From: an uncultured Akkermansia sp.
Lineage (GTDB): Bacteria; Verrucomicrobiota; Verrucomicrobiia; Verrucomicrobiales; Akkermansiaceae
DNA length: 64,000 nucleotides
Direction: 5' to 3'
NCBI GenBank assembly: GCA_947588645.1
Contig: CANPYO010000002.1
Span: 11,864-75,863, forward strand
The notes below the pieces were generated by a model. That model did not search any database. It saw only the letters and a program-made list of their open reading frames with translations, and had not been told where the DNA came from. Both the position numbers and the translations under genes were made by a program. Within the stretch, counting starts at the first letter, position 1; the number at the start of each line of letters is the position of its first letter. Below, one piece after another: positions 11,775-48,264 of the stretch.

Positions 11775-11951
11775 ATGGGCAAAAGCGAGGACGTTCTCAC
11801 GAATGTTCAAACCAAGAAGGTAAGATATGTTGGGCGCAATGTGCAGCGCCGTGTTGTGAGCTCCTTTTGGGTAATTTTCTGGTGTGCGCTTGCTCTTCTC
11901 TCTATGTCTCTGTGGCTGCTGCGCCTCCTAGGGCTTGTCAGCTTCCTGTGA
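11775..11951 (+). CDS. Possible small membrane protein (58 aa)
   Basis: Basic N-terminus followed by a hydrophobic C-terminal helix (FWVIFWCALALLSMSLWLLRLLGLV); fills an otherwise empty gap. Confidence 0.35.
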   Translation: MGKSEDVLTNVQTKKVRYVGRNVQRRVVSSFWVIFWCALALLSMSLWLLRLLGLVSFL

Positions 11952-30477: not shown

Positions 30478-30922
30478 CAAGGCAAACGCATTAGAAAATG
30501 CGTTTGCCTATGTACGATGTACGATTTTCGATGTACGATTTGGAAATAGCGCGCGCCTGCGGCGCGGGGATGCTGAGCAGAAGCAAACGGAAATTTGAAA
30601 GCCGTGTGCGGATGTGGTTAGAAAGTGATGGGAATTGCAAAGCGGGAGCAGTCGCGGTGGAAGGTGGAGGTTTCACTTCCATCTCCCATGAAACGCATTA
30701 GAAAATGCGTTTGCCTATGTACGATGTACGATTTTCGATGTACGATTTGGAAATAGCGCGCGCCCGCGGCGCGGGGATGCTGAGCAGAAGCAAACGGAAA
30801 TTTGAAAGCCGTGTGCGGATGTGGTTAGAAAGTGATGGGAATTGCAAAGCGGGAGCAGTCGCGGTGGAAGGTGGAGATTTCACTTCCATCTCCCATGAAA
30901 CGCATTAGAAAATGCGTTTGCT
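30478..30922 (+). repeat. Tandem duplication of a 207-bp MITE-related unit (2 units plus a third hairpin)
   Basis: AAACGCATTAGAAAATGCGTTTG at 30484, 30691 and 30898 (period 207); the two units differ at two positions that I could see. Confidence 0.93.
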
Positions 30923-31028
30923 ATTTATGATTTTGAAATTTTTGCCGCGAAAAAATTGGGAGTTTTTATGCTCCTTTTTTCTGTTTCATATTTCATTTTA
31001 ATTGATTAAGAAGATCTCTGGAGTGCTC

Positions 31029-31214
31029 ATCTCTTTTTGAAAGAGATGTCAAGTGAAAAGAAAAATGTTTTTTCACGGTACGTGAGTTACGAAGATTAGA
31101 AACGACTAAAATGCCACGCGTCAGGTGTGTTTTGCGTAAGTGTGTTTTATTGTATAGAGCTTAATACAAATAGTGTATGATCGCTGAAGGTGTATATCTC
31201 TTTCAAAAAGAGAT
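31029..31214. promoter_or_regulatory. Pair of 19-bp palindromic sites in inverted orientation flanking 148 bp of AT-rich leader
   Basis: ATCTCTTTTTGAAAGAGAT (31029-31047) and ATCTCTTTCAAAAAGAGAT (31196-31214) are exact reverse complements; candidate -10 TATGAT at 31176. Confidence 0.7.
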
Positions 31215-31265
31215 ATGCTGGCGCCTGATCAGGGGATCCCTGCTTCATGATTTTCTCTGTACAAC

Positions 31266-31547
31266 ATGCCTTCTCTCAAAGAAAAGATTCATTTGGAAGT
31301 GGTTATAGACGTCGCCATGGCGGTCGTACTAATCGCGTCGCTATGGGTAGGAGCAGGCTACTATCAACGTGCGGGTCGGTTGGAGAGACGGACGGATCAA
31401 ATATGCGCCCGTATCAAGAGCGTGGAACGCGAATCTGTCAGACTCGATAACAGACGATCCGGTACCAACGCGCAGGAACTGTCGCGTGAAATCGACATGT
31501 TGGAAGACAAAGTAACCGAGCTGAATGCTCTGCTCAGGGAGGAATAA
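31266..31547 (+). CDS. Cassette ORF1-A: N-anchored coiled-coil protein (93 aa)
   Basis: TM VVIDVAMAVVLIASLWVGAGYY followed by a heptad-rich tail. Confidence 0.65.
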   Translation: MPSLKEKIHLEVVIDVAMAVVLIASLWVGAGYYQRAGRLERRTDQICARIKSVERESVRLDNRRSGTNAQELSREIDMLEDKVTELNALLREE

Positions 31548-31551
31548 GCGC

Positions 31552-32295
31552 ATGAAAGAGACAATTCGAGTGGCGTTGAAAATAGCAACCGGCCTGGCCG
31601 CCGCCTGGGTTCTCTGCATGTTCGTGTTCTGCCTGTTTTCAGAGAGAACTCTGCACAGGGCAGAACTACAGCTGCAGGACGCCGCCGCACAGTTGGCCGA
31701 GGAAAAAGACGCACATGAGGAGGATAAAGCTATGGTCAAAGAGCTGCGCAAGATGAGGCTCGATCTCAAAAACGAACTGCGTGTGCTCAAAAAACAGCTT
31801 GCTCTGAAAAAGGGACTCTCGGAGGGGACAGAAATCTCCGCGGAGGAGCTTTCGGATGCCCTCTCAGAACGCGAACGTTCCGAAGCCAAGCATGACCTTT
31901 TGCACGAGAATAGGACGCTGCTGCGCAGAATTGCCGAGTCGCGTTACGCTCTCCGCTCATACAGGACTCCGCCTTGTTTGGAAACTCTCGATGATGAATA
32001 TCAGGAGAGACTGCGGAGCATTCACGGGAAATGGAGAGCGGCCGTGCAATCTCTGCTTAACGTTGCTACCCGAGGAGAGGCGGATAAGGTACTCCGCCTG
32101 CAGGAACAAGTGCGAGAACTCGCCGACTCTGCGGACGTTCTCACAGGGAACACGCAGCTCTATTTTAACCAGGCGGGACGGATAGCCGAAGTCGCCGACG
32201 AGCTTTTGAATGCCGCCACCGCTCGCCAACTTCTGCTTCGTCGATCCGAAGAGTTGGACATCCCCGTCAATCCCGAAATTTCCCCTAACCCCTGA
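31552..32295 (+). CDS. Cassette ORF2-A: N-anchored coiled-coil protein (247 aa)
   Basis: TM IATGLAAAWVLCMFVFCLF followed by long amphipathic helices. Confidence 0.7.
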   Translation: MKETIRVALKIATGLAAAWVLCMFVFCLFSERTLHRAELQLQDAAAQLAEEKDAHEEDKAMVKELRKMRLDLKNELRVLKKQLALKKGLSEGTEISAEELSDALSERERSEAKHDLLHENRTLLRRIAESRYALRSYRTPPCLETLDDEYQERLRSIHGKWRAAVQSLLNVATRGEADKVLRLQEQVRELADSADVLTGNTQLYFNQAGRIAEVADELLNAATARQLLLRRSEELDIPVNPEISPNP

Positions 32296-32301
32296 CTCCA
32301 T

Positions 32302-32556
32302 ATGGATAAATACATTAACATAGGCCTCGTCGTCATTATCATTGCTGCAATTTTAGTCGGCAGGCATTTCTATTCCCAAAAGTCAAACACGGAAATCTCC
32401 ATTGAGAACACGCAAAAGAAGATTGAAGGTATTCGAAGGGAAATCTCCTCGATCAAATCCAAGGTGAACTCCCTTGGCACCCGTCAACTTAATGCCGAGA
32501 AATCCCGCTTGGAAAGGCAACAGGAACAGCTGAAAACGGAACTCGAAAGAATCTGA
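32302..32556 (+). CDS. Cassette ORF3-A: N-anchored coiled-coil protein (84 aa)
   Basis: TM INIGLVVIIIAAILVG followed by a coiled coil. Confidence 0.7.
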   Translation: MDKYINIGLVVIIIAAILVGRHFYSQKSNTEISIENTQKKIEGIRREISSIKSKVNSLGTRQLNAEKSRLERQQEQLKTELERI

Positions 32557-32571
32557 TAACTCATAAAACAC

Positions 32572-33408
32572 ATGGACATTCTACTTAAAATTCTGGCAGT
32601 GCTGACCCTGATCTGGGGAGGCTGGATGTATTTCATAAGTTCCGATGATGAGGCAAAGCTGAGGGGAATTCGTAACGAACTCAAAGTAGCCAAGCAAGAA
32701 TTGGGCGATGCACGAGTTGCTTACGAGGAAGAGAGCAAAAAATGCGAGACTCTCGCAGGGGAGATAGATACCCTAAAGGAGAATGCTCAGGAATTGAGAA
32801 AAGAGATCACCACGAAGAGGGAGGAAAAGAAGAAACTAGCCGCTCAGGAACGTCAAGAACGACTGGAAGCAGAGAGAAAGGCGCGAGAAGAAGCCGCAGA
32901 GGCACGGAGAGAAAAATTAAGGATTCAAAAAGAAAAGGAGCAGGAGAGCAGAATGGCCTTATTGGAACGCGAAAAACAATTTGAAAAAGAGGAAGAAGAA
33001 AAAGAAAAAGCTGAGCAAGCTAAACAGGATGCCGAGTATGAGAAGGAAGAAAGGAAGGAAAGAATTCAACAATTAAAAAGAAGGATAGAAAGTTCGACTC
33101 GTGGACTGGAGAGCTATAGTTCCTGCTCGGCTTACGCTCCTCCGGGCAAAAAAGATTTCGGACAAGTTGAAAAGATGCGGCAGAATTGGACCTCATTTGT
33201 TCGAAGTTGTATTGAAGCAGTCGATAAAGGTGATTCAAAGAGGTTTGAAAGTACCGGAAAGAAACTTCTCAATACGGCGAAAGCTCTGGATAGAATTTGT
33301 GATGGTCGCTACGTAAGTGATGCTACAAATTTCGTTGCTGAAGGCAGAAAAATACTAGGGGCAAAGAAAGAGCTGCAGGAGCTGGAAAAATTGAATAAAA
33401 GCGAGTAA
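32572..33408 (+). CDS. Cassette ORF4-A: N-anchored protein with a charged E/K/R stalk and Cys-containing C-terminal domain (278 aa)
   Basis: TM ILAVLTLIWGGWMYF, TolA-like charged helix, C-terminal domain with three Cys. Confidence 0.75.
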   Translation: MDILLKILAVLTLIWGGWMYFISSDDEAKLRGIRNELKVAKQELGDARVAYEEESKKCETLAGEIDTLKENAQELRKEITTKREEKKKLAAQERQERLEAERKAREEAAEARREKLRIQKEKEQESRMALLEREKQFEKEEEEKEKAEQAKQDAEYEKEERKERIQQLKRRIESSTRGLESYSSCSAYAPPGKKDFGQVEKMRQNWTSFVRSCIEAVDKGDSKRFESTGKKLLNTAKALDRICDGRYVSDATNFVAEGRKILGAKKELQELEKLNKSE

Positions 33409-33409
33409 A

Positions 33410-33474
33410 CGGTGATATCAGTCAATAAGAGCATTTTCTCTGCTGATTGACTTCTCTCAAACGCTTTTGCCCTG
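33410..33474 (+). repeat. Right-hand fragment of the X-type MITE
   Basis: GGTGATATCAGTCAATAAG...CTCTCAAACGCTTTTGCCCTG matches about 1388-1450. Confidence 0.75.
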
Positions 33475-39984: not shown

Positions 39985-40200
39985 CACTCATGTCCCCATA
40001 AAATCATAACTGGGCTCATTCAACCCATTCCTCTTGCGTTTCCAACAGACAAAGGAAGTAAGCCCGGCAAGAATCATGATGCCCGCTTGTTGCCGTGATT
40101 TTTGATACGTACAAGCGGTGATATCAATCAATGAGAGTCTTTTCTCTGCTGATGGACTTCCCTCAAATGCGTCTGTCCCGGAGGTCTGCCTGTTGGGAAA
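39985..40200 (+). repeat. Composite P-family/X-module repeat
   Basis: First ~90 bp match 12493-12580, then module X (as in 1344-1450) with a degenerate right TIR ending at 40180, then CTGCCTGTTGGGA as in the other P elements. Confidence 0.7.
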
Positions 40201-40323
40201 ATATTCGTCATCTTTCGGAGTTAGCTTGCAAATGGGAGCGGATCGTGTATATAATGGTCGGGAGAACGTAGGGGAAGCGCTCACTTGGAATGCGACCCCG
40301 CATGGCGTCAACCCAATATCACC

Positions 40324-41490: not shown

Positions 41491-41859
41491 ATGACTCCCA
41501 AAACGTACAAAATCGGCGATGCTGACATACGCCCGTGGGGGCGTTGGGTTGTGCTGGATTTGACTCCTCAGCTCGTCGTAAAAAAACTTTTTATCGCGCC
41601 GGGAAAACGCATTTCTTTGCAACTTCACAGATTTCGCTCGGAGCGTTGGATTATGATGCAGGGCGAGGCTGTGGTTCAGAAAAATGACGAGAAAATCGTT
41701 CTTAAACCAGGCGATGGCGTGCTCATCCCTCAAAATACCTTGCATCGCCTCTCCAACGAGAGCGAACAGGAAGTCCTTCTACTCGAGGTTCAGTTTGGCG
41801 ACTTGCTCAGCGAGGATGATATAGAACGCCTTGAGGACGATTACGGAAGAAACGACTAG
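41491..41859 (+). CDS. Cupin, mannose-6-phosphate isomerase type II C-terminal-like
   Basis: RPWG, ISLQLHRFRSERW, HRLSN and EVQFGDLLSEDDIERLEDDYGR. Confidence 0.9.
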   Translation: MTPKTYKIGDADIRPWGRWVVLDLTPQLVVKKLFIAPGKRISLQLHRFRSERWIMMQGEAVVQKNDEKIVLKPGDGVLIPQNTLHRLSNESEQEVLLLEVQFGDLLSEDDIERLEDDYGRND

Positions 41860-41891
41860 AGTTGAAAACTCCGCAGGAATTTAAAGAAATT

Positions 41892-42817
41892 ATGTTATTT
41901 ACCCCCCCCTAGTATCTGTTATTCAAGTTTGTCAAGATCTGATTGACGGCGTCGTTTGCGTTAATCGGGATTCAGATACCCAGCGGTGGGAAAAATACTG
42001 TTTGCGGGCGAAGGGAATCATCGAACCGGAGAAGTTATACCGGCTGAGCGCCGTAGAGGGAGTGCAGTTGCCGGGTTATGGGGAAAGGCCGTGGTTTACA
42101 GAACGCACCGGCGCGCGAAGAGAACATTGGGCTCATGGGGGCGGGTGTTTGCTGTCGCACCGCAATGCGATACGTCTTGCGCAGGAGAAGGAATGGCGCA
42201 ACGTACTCATCATGGAAGATGATGCTGTGCCGGAGGTAGAAGAAGGAGCTATGCGAGCGTTGGCGCGAGCCTTGAGAGAATTGCGGGGCAAATGGGTGCT
42301 CTATCTCGGGTATTCTGAGCGCCCCCGTCCTTGTGGGCGCGCACTGTGGCAGCAAGGAGGGTATTCTCTATGGCAGATCAGCGGGGCTATTGCTCTGCAC
42401 GCTTACATCGTGCCCCGGAGCATGTATGCGGCAATTCTGGCGCATCTTCCTCAGGAGGATTCTCAGGTGTGGTCTTGGATGGCTCGGCACAGAGCCATTG
42501 ACAACTGGTACAGGAATGAGGTTTCCGAGTGGCCGGGGGTGCGTGTACATACAATACTGCCGCATCTGTATTACCAGGAGGCTTTTTATGATGCGAGTGG
42601 AGTGGCAGGATCTGCCAATGAGCTGGGAAAGAGTGTCAAACTCAGTTCGCGTACGGTATATCCACGGGCGTGCTGGGGGCTATTTACGCTTGGACACTTT
42701 CTCTTTGCGCCGTTCAGAAGATTTGCCGTACGCATGAATACTCTGCGCACATATTACCTCTGCCGTTGCTTTGGCTTTCGAGGGCAGAAAAAAAGGAAAC
42801 GTGCGAAATTGCAATAA
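41892..42817 (+). CDS. Glycosyltransferase family 25, currently frameshifted at a C8 tract (phase-variable candidate)
   Basis: GCLLSHRNAI...VLIMEDDA GT25 motifs; the N-terminal motif VVCVNRDSDTQRW lies upstream of the first in-frame TTG; ATG 41892 joins the frame only with C9. Confidence 0.75.
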
Positions 42818-45694: not shown

Positions 45695-46534
45695 CTAAGA
45701 CTCGCTTTTATTCAATTTCTCCAGCTCCTGCAGCTCTTTCCATACCCCTAGTATTTTTCTGCCATCAGCAACGAAATTTGTAGCATCACTTACGTGGTGA
45801 CCATCACATATTCTATCCAGTGCTCTCGCTGTATTGAGAAGTTTCTTCCCGGTCTTTTCAAACGTATTTGAATCACCTTTATCGACTGCTTCAATACAAC
45901 TTCGAACAAATGAGGTCCAATTTTGCCGCATCTTTTCAACTTGTCCGAAATCTTTTTTGCCCGGAGGAGCGGAGGCCGAGCAGAAACTATAGTCCTCCAG
46001 TCTACGAGTCCAACTTTCTATCCTTCTTTTTAATTGTTGAATTCTTTCCTTCCTTTCTTCCTTCTCATACTCAGCAGCCTGTTCTTTTTCTTTTTGTTCT
46101 TCCTCTTTTTCAAATTGTTTTTCGCGTTCCAATAAGGCCATTCTGTTCTCCTGCTCCTGCTCCTGCTCCTTTTCTTTTTGAATCCTTAATTTTTCCCTCC
46201 GTGCCTCTGCGGCTTCTTCTCGCGCCTTTCTCTCTGCTTCTAATTGTTCTTGACGTTCCTGAGCGGCTAGTTTCTTCTTTTCCTCTCTCTTCGCGGTGAT
46301 CCCTTTTCTCAATTCCTGAGCATTCTCCTTTAGGGTATCTATCTCCCCTGCGAGAGTCTCGCATTTTTTGCTCTCTTCCTCGTAAGCAGCTCGAGCATCG
46401 CCCAATTCTTGCTTGGCTACCTTGAGCTCGTTACGAATTCCCCTCAGCTTTGCCTCATCATCGGAGCTTTTGAAGTACATCCAGCCCCCCCAGATCAGGG
46501 TCAGCATCGCCAGCATTTTAAGTAGAATGTCCAT
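45695..46534 (-). CDS. Cassette ORF4-B (279 aa), diverged paralogue of ORF4-A
   Basis: Same architecture; many substitutions and indels relative to 32572-33408. Confidence 0.75.
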   Translation of the reverse strand: MDILLKMLAMLTLIWGGWMYFKSSDDEAKLRGIRNELKVAKQELGDARAAYEEESKKCETLAGEIDTLKENAQELRKGITAKREEKKKLAAQERQEQLEAERKAREEAAEARREKLRIQKEKEQEQEQENRMALLEREKQFEKEEEQKEKEQAAEYEKEERKERIQQLKRRIESWTRRLEDYSFCSASAPPGKKDFGQVEKMRQNWTSFVRSCIEAVDKGDSNTFEKTGKKLLNTARALDRICDGHHVSDATNFVADGRKILGVWKELQELEKLNKSES

Positions 46535-46549
46535 GGCTTTTATGAGTTA

Positions 46550-46804
46550 TCAGATTCTTTCGAGTTCCGTTTTCAGTTGTTCCTGCTGCTTTTCCAAGCG
46601 GGTTTTTTCGGCATTAAGTTGACGGATGCCAAGGGAGTTCACTTTGGATTTGATCGAGGAGATTTCCCTTCGAATTCCTTCAATCTTCTTTTGCGTATTT
46701 TCAATGGAGATTTCCGTGTTTGACTTTTGGGAATAGAAATGTCTGCCGACTAAAATTGCGGCAATGATAATGACGACGAGACCGATGTTAATGTATTTAT
46801 CCAT
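46550..46804 (-). CDS. Cassette ORF3-B (84 aa)
   Basis: Three amino-acid differences from ORF3-A. Confidence 0.7.
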   Translation of the reverse strand: MDKYINIGLVVIIIAAILVGRHFYSQKSNTEISIENTQKKIEGIRREISSIKSKVNSLGIRQLNAEKTRLEKQQEQLKTELERI

Positions 46805-46817
46805 ATGGGGTCAGGGG

Positions 46818-47561
46818 TTAGGGGGTAGGTGAAGTTTCGGGATTGACGGGGATGTCCAACTCTTCGGATCGACGAAGCAGAAGTTGGCGAGCGGTAGCGG
46901 CATTCAAAAGCTCGTCGGCGACTTCGGCTATCCGCCCCGCCTGGTTAAAATAGAGCTGCGTGTTCCCTGTGAGAACGTCCGCCGAGTCGGCGAGTTCTCG
47001 CACTTGTTCCTGCAGGCGAAGTACCTTATCCGCTTCTCCTCGGGTAGCAACGTTAAGCAGAGATTGCACGGCCGCTCTCCATTTCCCGTGAATGCTCCGC
47101 AGTCTCTCCTGATATTCATCATCGAGAGTTTCCAAACAAGGCGGAGTCCTGTATGAGCGGAGAGCGTAACGCGACTCGGCAATTCTGCGCAGCAGCGTCC
47201 TATTCTCGTGCAAAAGGTCATGCTTGGCTTCGGAACGTTCGCGTTCTGAGAGGGCATCCGAAAGCTCCTCCGCGGAGATTTCTGTCCCCTCCGAGAGTCC
47301 CTTTTTCAGAGCAAGCTGTTTTTTGAGCACACGCAGTTCGTTTTTGAGATCGAGCCTCATCTTGCGCAGCTCTTTGACCATAGCTTTATCCTCCTCATGT
47401 GCGTCTTTTTCCTCGGCCAACTGTGCGGCGGCGTCCTGCAGCTGTAGTTCTGCCCTGTGCAGAGTTCTCTCTGAAAACAGGCAGAACACGAACATGCAGA
47501 GAACCCAGGCGGCGGCCAGGCCGGTTGCTATTTTCAACGCCACTCGAATTGTCTCTTTCAT
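46818..47561 (-). CDS. Cassette ORF2-B (247 aa)
   Basis: Identical to ORF2-A except two residues at the C-terminus. Confidence 0.7.
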   Translation of the reverse strand: MKETIRVALKIATGLAAAWVLCMFVFCLFSERTLHRAELQLQDAAAQLAEEKDAHEEDKAMVKELRKMRLDLKNELRVLKKQLALKKGLSEGTEISAEELSDALSERERSEAKHDLLHENRTLLRRIAESRYALRSYRTPPCLETLDDEYQERLRSIHGKWRAAVQSLLNVATRGEADKVLRLQEQVRELADSADVLTGNTQLYFNQAGRIAEVADELLNAATARQLLLRRSEELDIPVNPETSPTP

Positions 47562-47565
47562 GCGC

Positions 47566-47847
47566 TTATTCCTCCCTGAGCAGAGCATTCAGCTCGGTTA
47601 CTTTGTCTTCCAACATGTCGATTTCACGCGACAGTTCCTGCGCGTTGGTACCGGATCGTCTGTTATCGAGTCTGACAGATTCGCGTTCCACGCTCTTGAT
47701 ACGGGCGCATATTTGATCCGTCCGTCTCTCCAACCGACCCGCACGTTGATAGTAGCCTGCTCCTACCCATAGCGACGCGATTAGTACGACCGCCATGGCG
47801 ACGTCTATAACCACTTCCAAATGAATCTTTTCTTTGAGAGAAGGCAT
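47566..47847 (-). CDS. Cassette ORF1-B (93 aa)
   Basis: Protein identical to ORF1-A. Confidence 0.65.
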   Translation of the reverse strand: MPSLKEKIHLEVVIDVAMAVVLIASLWVGAGYYQRAGRLERRTDQICARIKSVERESVRLDNRRSGTNAQELSREIDMLEDKVTELNALLREE

Positions 47848-48264
47848 GTTGTACAGAGAAAATCATGAAGCAGGGATCCCCTGATCAGGCGCCAGCATAT
47901 CTCTTTTTGAAAGAGATATACACCTTCAGCGATCATACACTATTTGTATTAAGCTCTATACAATAAAACACACTTACGCAAAACACACCTGACGCGTGGC
48001 ATTTTAGTCGTTTCTAATCTTCGTAACTCACGTACCGTGAAAAAACATTTTTCTTTTCACTTGACATCTCTTTCAAAAAGAGATGAGCACTCCAGAGATC
48101 TTCTTAATCAATTAAAATGAAATATGAAACAGAAAAAAGGAGCATAAAAACTCCCAATTTTTTCGCGGCAAAAATTTCAAAATCATAAATAGCAAACGCA
48201 TTTTCTGATGCGTTTCATGGGAGATGGAAGTGAAACCTCCATCTTCCACCGCAGGCGAGCATAC

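Follow-up and report, generated by a model that had tools for sequence, protein, structure and literature searches.

A candidate poly-C switch at the start of a GT25-type glycosyltransferase gene in an uncultured Akkermansia species

The cupin-thrS locus and its poly-C tract

The window, the whole stretch of 64,000 nucleotides that was analysed, corresponds to positions 11864 to 75863 of contig C2 in a metagenome-assembled genome (MAG) of an uncultured Akkermansia species. The MAG consists of 158 contigs that add up to 2.49 Mb, with a G+C content of 54.9%. Its ThrS shares 84-86% identity with proteins listed by NCBI under Akkermansia sp. or Candidatus Akkermansia spp. At the locus of interest the window encodes, in this order, a holin-like protein, a small ORF, a cupin of 122 amino acids, a glycosyltransferase (GT), ThrS and InfC. 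The succession of cupin, GT, thrS and infC recurs among relatives. The features at the start of the GT gene are the following:

41491 to 41859, plus strand: gene of a stand-alone cupin of 122 amino acids (PF01050, E = 4e-28), akin to the C-terminal domain of mannose-6-phosphate isomerase/ManC
41875 to 41879, plus strand: AGGAA, read off the sequence 12 nt upstream of the ATG; a weak and uncertain candidate for a ribosome-binding site
41892 to 41894, plus strand: ATG, start codon of the ON state; ATGTTAT is kept directly 5' of the tract in four species, and a natural protein of 308 amino acids begins here
41902 to 41909, plus strand: poly-C tract, read off the sequence as C8, the OFF length; C7, C8, C9 and C10 occur elsewhere on near-identical flanks
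41910 to 41912, plus strand: TAG, which at C8 ends the ATG frame after 6 codons (sequence and translation)
41909 to 42817, plus strand: coding body of the GT25-like glycosyltransferase (302 codons and a TAA), in the frame that trails the ATG frame by one base
42002 to 42004, plus strand: TTG, first canonical start in the enzyme frame, chosen by gene callers in OFF assemblies

From the ATG the window reads TTA TTT A, eight C and TAG. Its translation, MLFTPP*, agrees with the claim of the first-pass annotation that the ATG frame stops after six codons at C8. The enzyme frame is open from 41885, directly after a TAA at 41882-41884, to the TAA at 42815-42817. A scan of this frame for ATG, GTG or TTG between 41885 and TTG 42002 found none, as had been noted from the sequence before. 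A ninth C, introduced in silico, joins the ATG to the enzyme frame and yields MLFTPPLVSVIQ... (also written MLFTPPLVSVIQVCQDLIDGVV...), a product that is also found in nature (see below). Lengths of 6, 9 and 12 set the ATG of the window allele in frame with the enzyme; at C7 or C10 translation meets a third-frame TGA 18 codons in. The gene has the anatomy of a contingency locus: a homopolymer of at least 7 nt lies just after the start of the coding sequence and by its length determines the reading frame.

Eight C in a row are in themselves nothing unusual. The genome contains 29 G/C runs of exactly 8, fewer than the 46 that a first-order Markov model predicts or the 85 of an i.i.d. model, and the notion that the C8 run is statistically exceptional per se was rejected. 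G/C runs of 6-8 are depleted throughout the genome; those of 9 or more reach or exceed the Markov expectation. Runs of at least 8 number 52 in all. What goes beyond chance is the conjunction of three features: the placement of the tract, 10 nt past an ATG whose frame is not that of a conserved 300-codon ORF without a start of its own, its presence at the same site in four species, and its variable length in otherwise identical alleles.

The cupin stop codon and the GT ATG are 32 nt apart. A search of this interval for a sigma-70-like promoter gave none; the nearest match on the plus strand lies at 40226-40255. Because of the short gap and the lack of a promoter-like site within it, the GT gene is likely co-transcribed with the upstream genes. 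The distance from AGGAA to the ATG is long for a Shine-Dalgarno site.

The GT gene also lies between two long inverted repeats:

30861 to 33406 and 45700 to 48252: inverted repeats of 2.5 kb, 93-99% complementary

The repeats enclose 12.3 kb containing uvrB, purA, carA, the GT gene, thrS and infC. Inversion of this segment would leave the leader of the GT gene unchanged, and for this reason the position of the gene between the repeats looks incidental to the poly-C switch. At the outer edge of the left repeat arm there are two tandem copies of 207 bp (30484-30897), and the ORFs within the arms have no Pfam match and a coiled-coil appearance. A direct repeat of 66 nt, 83% identical between its copies at 33407-33472 and 40113-40178, carries an internal inverted repeat (AGTCAAT...ATTGACT). 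The first copy abuts the inner end of the left arm, and the second is situated about 50 nt 5' of the promoter-like site at 40226, at the head of the gene cluster whose last member is the GT gene.

The encoded enzyme and its N-terminal end

The assignment of the protein to family GT25, made in the first-pass annotation, is borne out by its relatives, by profile comparison and by the predicted fold, but not by the score of the protein itself. Against PF01755 the window protein scores 13.8 bits (E = 0.055), which does not reach the gathering cut-off of 24 bits, and scans of Pfam and NCBIfam with this protein gave no significant match, none in Pfam at E<=0.01. A database search retrieved 26 relatives, 23 of which were aligned with the window protein to form alignment A1 of 24 sequences. 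A PF01755 match at E<=0.01 is present in 20 of the 24 (best 1.2e-8), and several relatives bear a precomputed PF01755 label. The A1 profile matches the GT25 catalytic domain of human procollagen galactosyltransferase 1 (COLGALT1) with E = 2.6e-4 and mimivirus R655 with E = 1.7e-3; these profile alignments span the N-terminal strand and the G-C-x-L-S-H and E-D-D motifs. All three elements are found in the Akkermansia protein, aligned to COLGALT1 residues. The invariant residues of A1 are D13, N19, G79, C80, S83, H84, E103, D104 and D105. The sites in the window that correspond to the main elements are:

41942 to 41989, plus strand: first beta-strand and the motif I-D-x-V-x-x-I-N-x-D ... R-W, from A1, aligned to FDEVFMINLRRRQDRRER of COLGALT1
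42215 to 42223, plus strand: E103-D104-D105, a DxD-type metal/nucleotide-sugar motif, invariant in A1 and aligned to FEDD of COLGALT1
42707 to 42814, plus strand: long C-terminal helix and basic tail (…GFRGQKKRKRAKLQ); helix 267-288 in the model, basic tail conserved in A1

An AlphaFold model computed from the alignment has a pLDDT of 89.9 and a pTM of 0.88. E103-D104-D105 is placed at the end of a beta-strand (98-103). In a Foldseek comparison with the PDB, ranks 1 to 18 were all occupied by GT25 enzymes (E 8.6e-10 to 1.9e-6, probability 1.0), among them human COLGALT1 (9evj/9evk, 8zgc), a bacterial beta-1,4-galactosyltransferase (8xc8/8xkd) and mimivirus R655 (9crz), so that the GT-A fold of the model has its nearest solved counterparts in GT25. 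These structures are the best matches by profile and by fold, and the N-terminal strand and the EDD motif align with them; identity, however, is 14-20% and the TM-score on the query 0.44-0.49. Unlike the solved GT25 structures, the Akkermansia family possesses about 90 additional C-terminal residues that include the long helix and the basic tail, probably a peripheral membrane anchor. Since the filing under GT25 derives from the PF01755 matches of the relatives, the profile search and the predicted fold, the window protein is best described as a predicted, divergent GT25-type glycosyltransferase of the GT-A fold, at the level of remote homology. Lipo-oligosaccharide (LOS) as the target glycan would be a guess by analogy.

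Where translation of the enzyme begins is indicated by the residues ahead of TTG 42002. D13 and N19 are the same in all 24 sequences, and D21 and R26 in nearly all; these four residues are encoded at 41945-41986, entirely 5' of the TTG, and the stretch from D13 to R26 makes up the first beta-strand of the fold together with the motif that comes after it. The alignments with A1 and COLGALT1 thus place the GT25 N-terminal motif upstream of TTG 42002, where it had been seen in the sequence at the outset. The product of 271 amino acids that starts at the TTG, called on 13 contigs as protein P0028, would have neither the N-terminal helix nor strand 1. Over the 32 codons 5' of the TTG, dN/dS between the window and three sister species is 0.06-0.32. 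As this resembles the value of the whole gene, the comparison argues that these codons are translated.

Natural alleles and selection

Among contigs from other samples, those that match the window at 99.8-100% identity along 1.07-1.39 kb, with at most two substitutions each, differ in the length of the tract. C8 was found in L047, L048, L050-L052 and L054, which like L049 and L053 below encode the same truncated product of 271 amino acids, and C9 in L061-L063, which come from three samples and carry 0, 0 and 2 substitutions relative to the window. Samples with lengths other than C8 include DRR848734 (C9), DRR848998 (C7) and DRR849000 (C10). C7 (L049) and C10 (L053) were each found on a single contig, for which an error of +/-1 is possible given that these are low-coverage metagenome assemblies (2-7x where given). 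Across the near-identical contigs at least three independent length changes occurred versus five substitutions in total, indicative of a hypermutable tract. Near-identical alleles of different tract length are also found in the G058 and G126 types, introduced below.

The first-pass annotation had named two findings that would speak against a switch: that all reads are C9, C8 being a sequencing error, or that translation starts at CTG 41939 and orthologues lack the tract. C8, however, recurs in at least eight independent samples in addition to the MAG, and the closest orthologues do have the tract, at other lengths. The C9 ON allele that had been predicted exists: an exact look-up in a public protein collection returned the product of 308 amino acids (P0057), which is encoded on 4 contigs. 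The same exact look-up with nine other predicted ON proteins (C6 and C12 of the window allele; C7 and C10 of the L003 type; C7, C10 and C13 of the G111 type; C7 and C10 of the G058 type) returned none, and no match to the ATG-tract-flank motif turned up when JGI metagenome contigs were scanned for the pattern. In a strain 99.4% identical to the window (L003, L004) the tract reads C9 followed by AG, not C8 followed by TAG, owing to a T-to-C change at the end of the tract, and the gene is out of frame.

A protein search of 121 genomes, a sample of the same GTDB genus, detected a relative of the GT in 84; a blastn-type DNA search of 40 relatives gave short flank matches and nothing more. The tract occupies the same site in three sister species, with differing lengths and flanking bases:

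G111 type, 88% protein identity to the window: C8, OFF
G058 type, 86% protein identity: C8 and C9, OFF
G126 type, 76% protein identity: C12, ON, 320 amino acids
G126 type, 76% protein identity: C8, OFF
G126 type, 76% protein identity: C14 following an A-to-C change; the enzyme is in frame with an ATG farther upstream, which overlaps the cupin gene at its 3' end; 337 amino acids

Tract-bearing copies of the GT form a clade that was encountered in just four uncultured species, all closely related. L064, a relative with 73% identity, has CACCCC at the site of the tract and a plain in-frame ATG, and the orthologues with 35-45% identity that were examined elsewhere in the genus have an ordinary ATG without a tract. 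From this distribution the tract appears to be a derived feature of one small clade.

Several further observations concern the relatives. The C14 variant of the G126 type (L065, contig ERZ27249413, locus 601-760) has its A-to-C change at the 5' edge of the tract, and in this lineage two of the three frames may yield a product. The 12 nt TATCTGTTATTC that follow the tract (window 41913-41924) are identical in the window, L018, L019, L020 and L064; at a dS of 0.5-0.9 elsewhere in the gene this identity could reflect a constraint at the nucleotide level, although the sites are few. In L019 (G058:C1:18744-22655; locus coordinates 347-1324 and 1379-1500) two GT25-like genes stand in tandem, the second being the one with the tract. 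Ahead of the latter lies a stretch in which 87 nt copied from the 5' end of thrS are joined to the final codons of the cupin gene. The unit of cupin end, tract-bearing GT and thrS start looks as if it had recombined as a cassette into the place beside a resident GT of 42% identity. L031 (G005:C178), from a distant species, has a run of eight G directly after the cupin stop codon (TAGGGGGGGGAATATCATTATG), about 35 nt 5' of the start of a GT gene without the tract, and this run possibly represents an independent homopolymer within the ribosome-binding region of that gene. Across the genus ThrS proteins share 84-96% identity; for the adjacent GT the figure is 35-45% in most species and 73-88% in the nearest relatives. 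By these identities the GT changes at a much higher rate than ThrS next to it, and the cupin-thrS slot seems to behave like a variable glycan locus.

The reading frame of the enzyme is maintained by selection. Among three distinct lineages dN/dS is 0.11-0.18 at a dS of 0.5-0.9, and between the near-identical G111 and G058 types it is 0.32. A search of about 45 GT copies, each of about 300 codons, for a further frameshift or stop found none. Natural tract lengths in frame (C9, C12) and out of frame exist side by side with an ORF that is intact and under purifying selection. OFF alleles prevail: in the window species 4 contigs are ON versus about 20 OFF, and the ON alleles found belong to the window species and the G126 type, none having been found for the G111 or G058 type. 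The excess of OFF is in part a matter of ascertainment, since most contigs were obtained via truncated gene calls, but full-length proteins, had they been common, would have appeared in the homology search and the cluster list. Contingency genes that are mostly OFF are familiar.

The proposed switch, its alternatives and related systems

We propose, with a probability of about 0.8, that the locus is a slipped-strand (simple-sequence) contingency gene for a GT25-type glycosyltransferase which is OFF in the window. This is the view of the first-pass annotation, and it has gained from the natural ON and OFF lengths on near-identical flanks and from the intact ORF under purifying selection. The anatomy of the tract, its length polymorphism on identical flanks, the natural ON and OFF alleles, the selection on the ORF and the GT25-like fold are the observations on which the proposal is built; switching itself is deduced from variation between samples. 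According to this scheme the gene would start at ATG 41892 and meet the poly-C tract after three codons. Slipped-strand mispairing during replication would add or remove C's, presumably in a reversible manner within a lineage. At C6, C9 and C12 the gene would be ON and give rise to an enzyme of 307-309 amino acids, MLFTP(n)LVSVIQ..., and at the other lengths, including C8, translation would end within 6-18 codons and the gene would be OFF. The enzyme would probably reside at the cytoplasmic face of the inner membrane, held by the basic C-terminal helix, and is predicted to add one sugar to the precursor of a surface glycan, such as the lipo-oligosaccharide core, a capsule or something similar. 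Cells would then differ heritably and reversibly in one sugar epitope of their surface.

Two alternatives are very improbable. Homopolymers are prone to error and many of the contigs have low coverage, which might suggest that the true length is C9 everywhere and that the other lengths arose in sequencing or assembly. Against this stand the occurrence of C8 in at least eight independent samples and the MAG, the recovery of longer tracts (C12, C14) intact elsewhere, and two sister species that are off by the opposite amount. A frameshift fixed within the homopolymer of a dead gene would agree with the out-of-frame state of the window and most related assemblies. Yet the dN/dS of 0.11-0.18 between distinct lineages, the lack of a second lesion in about 45 copies and the presence of intact alleles in the same species are at odds with a pseudogene, and gene decay is largely refuted by purifying selection and the absence of other lesions.

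The predominance of OFF alleles keeps leaky expression and non-canonical initiation in contention as rivals. RNA polymerase slippage or ribosomal -1/+1 frameshifting might restore the frame in a fraction of the products, such that OFF templates give a constitutive low level of enzyme and the length of the tract tunes this level, which would be compatible with phase variation. In favour of such recoding, most natural alleles are out of frame despite strong purifying selection, and C CCC CCC formally is an X XXY YYZ slippery heptamer with a stop codon immediately after it. The shift required, however, differs by lineage, being +1 nt for the window and the G058-type copies with C9+AAT and -1 or +2 nt for the G111 type and the other (C8) G058-type copies; a search for a frameshift-stimulating RNA structure downstream of the window tract found no stable structure (z = -0.59); alleles that are in frame exist as simple length variants; and transcriptional slippage is known mainly on long A/T runs. 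Recoding as the explanation of the locus is thus improbable. Still somewhat less probable is that the tract belongs to a 5' leader and that translation starts at a downstream non-canonical codon, CTG 41939 or ATT, so that the enzyme is made at any tract length. Codon 11 is CTG in the window and the G111 and G058 types and TTG in the G126 type, and a start there would retain D13 and N19. But CTG is a very weak start in bacteria, the ATG and the tract are kept at the same spot in four species, the model places residues 2-11 in the N-terminal helix, and L064, which lacks the tract, reads from its ATG through HPVSVIQSCWD, so that the residues before codon 11 belong to the protein. A more elaborate version of the contingency switch, in which the tract acts as a multi-level rheostat through starts in several frames and leaky slippage, perhaps within a large set of poly-G/C switches, is suggested by the dominance of OFF under purifying selection and by the C14 allele, which joins the enzyme to an upstream start; we consider it unlikely. 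Were it true, the poly-G/C switches of animal-gut Akkermansia would comprise outer-membrane beta-barrel proteins, ankyrin-repeat exported proteins, O-acyltransferases and a restriction enzyme.

A slipped-strand switch at this locus has parallels in well-known systems. The repeat-controlled GT25 genes for LOS synthesis in Haemophilus and Neisseria are textbook cases. lic2A, lex2B and lgtB/E are members of GT25; the repeats of lic2A and lex2A are tetranucleotides, and the poly-G genes lgtA/C/D of Neisseria are not GT25; jhp0563 of Helicobacter pylori is assigned to CAZy family GT25. Like the Akkermansia gene, lic2A/lex2 of H. influenzae and lgt of Neisseria have a 5'-proximal simple repeat just after the start that switches an LOS glycosyltransferase, but the bacteria that carry them are pathogens or commensals of the airways whereas the window organism is a verrucomicrobial commensal of the gut. 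In H. pylori a poly-C tract controls the reading frame of the LPS beta-(1,3)-galactosyltransferase jhp0563 and thereby the Lewis b epitope at the surface (PMC2806470). In jhp0563, too, poly-C sets the frame of a glycan enzyme, and the tract varies in length within H. pylori populations; the likeness to the GT gene of the window concerns the organization of the tract, not a sequence comparison. The jhp0563 tract, in contrast, comprises C11-C16 and lies several hundred nt into the gene instead of 10 nt after the ATG, and its phenotype was proven by knock-out and complementation.

Homopolymer switching is already known in Akkermansia. The genome paper of A. muciniphila from 2011 named 17 genes carrying tracts of more than 8 bp and suggested slippage (PMC3048395). 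In 2026 a change from G9 to G10 in Amuc_1413 was reported to have arisen repeatedly in culture, where it accounted for 87-91% of the reads, and 8G, 9G and 10G variants were found among public genomes (PMC13055324). Phase variation of the capsule by means of an inverton has been described as well (PMC13343947). Amuc_1413 (G9) and Amuc_2098 (C10) resemble the window gene in that they belong to the same genus, are surface polysaccharide genes and have had the same mechanism proposed for them (PMC13055324, PMC3048395); they differ in species and in function, encoding an EPS export protein and an acyltransferase and not the glycosyltransferase of the cupin-thrS slot. What appears to be new here is a different gene, in uncultured species, and comparative evidence of unusual directness.

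Akkermansia is a much-studied gut commensal and probiotic candidate whose surface glycans shape immune signalling and the association with mucus. To date the genus was known for phase variation through invertible promoters (cps1 capsule) and a single G9 tract (Amuc_1413); the locus adds a glycosyltransferase with natural ON and OFF alleles that can be read directly from metagenomes. Gene callers truncate the GT to 201-271 amino acids, and a GT that is missing or short in a MAG may be switched off and not lost.

The locus also suggests a wider set of homopolymer switches in the Akkermansia species of animal guts. In the MAG at least eight further G/C tracts are situated in long ORFs, 16-80 nt past the start codon, and several are out of frame as assembled. 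The other tracts, of 8-14 nt, are located at:

C40:14910-14917, C102:4163-4170, C34:14339-14352, C66:2897-2904 and C68:2669-2677
C97:6646-6653, C99:6041-6049, C9:3295-3303, C15:15267-15275 and C57:15588-15596

To judge from their positions and gene products, these tracts likely form a genome-wide set of phase-variable surface genes, into which the GT locus as a contingency gene would fit. The C8 tract at C40:14910 belongs to a gene for an outer-membrane beta-barrel protein. The tracts on C102, C66, C68 and C97 are found in genes of paralogous large ankyrin-repeat proteins with N-termini such as MKSVVTPPYLLLAYCK (...TPP(P)YLLLxYCK), and the tract on C99 in the gene of an AT3-SGNH O-acyltransferase. 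Further tract-bearing genes encode AT3 acyltransferases, UbiA prenyltransferases and a fragment of an Mrr-type nuclease.
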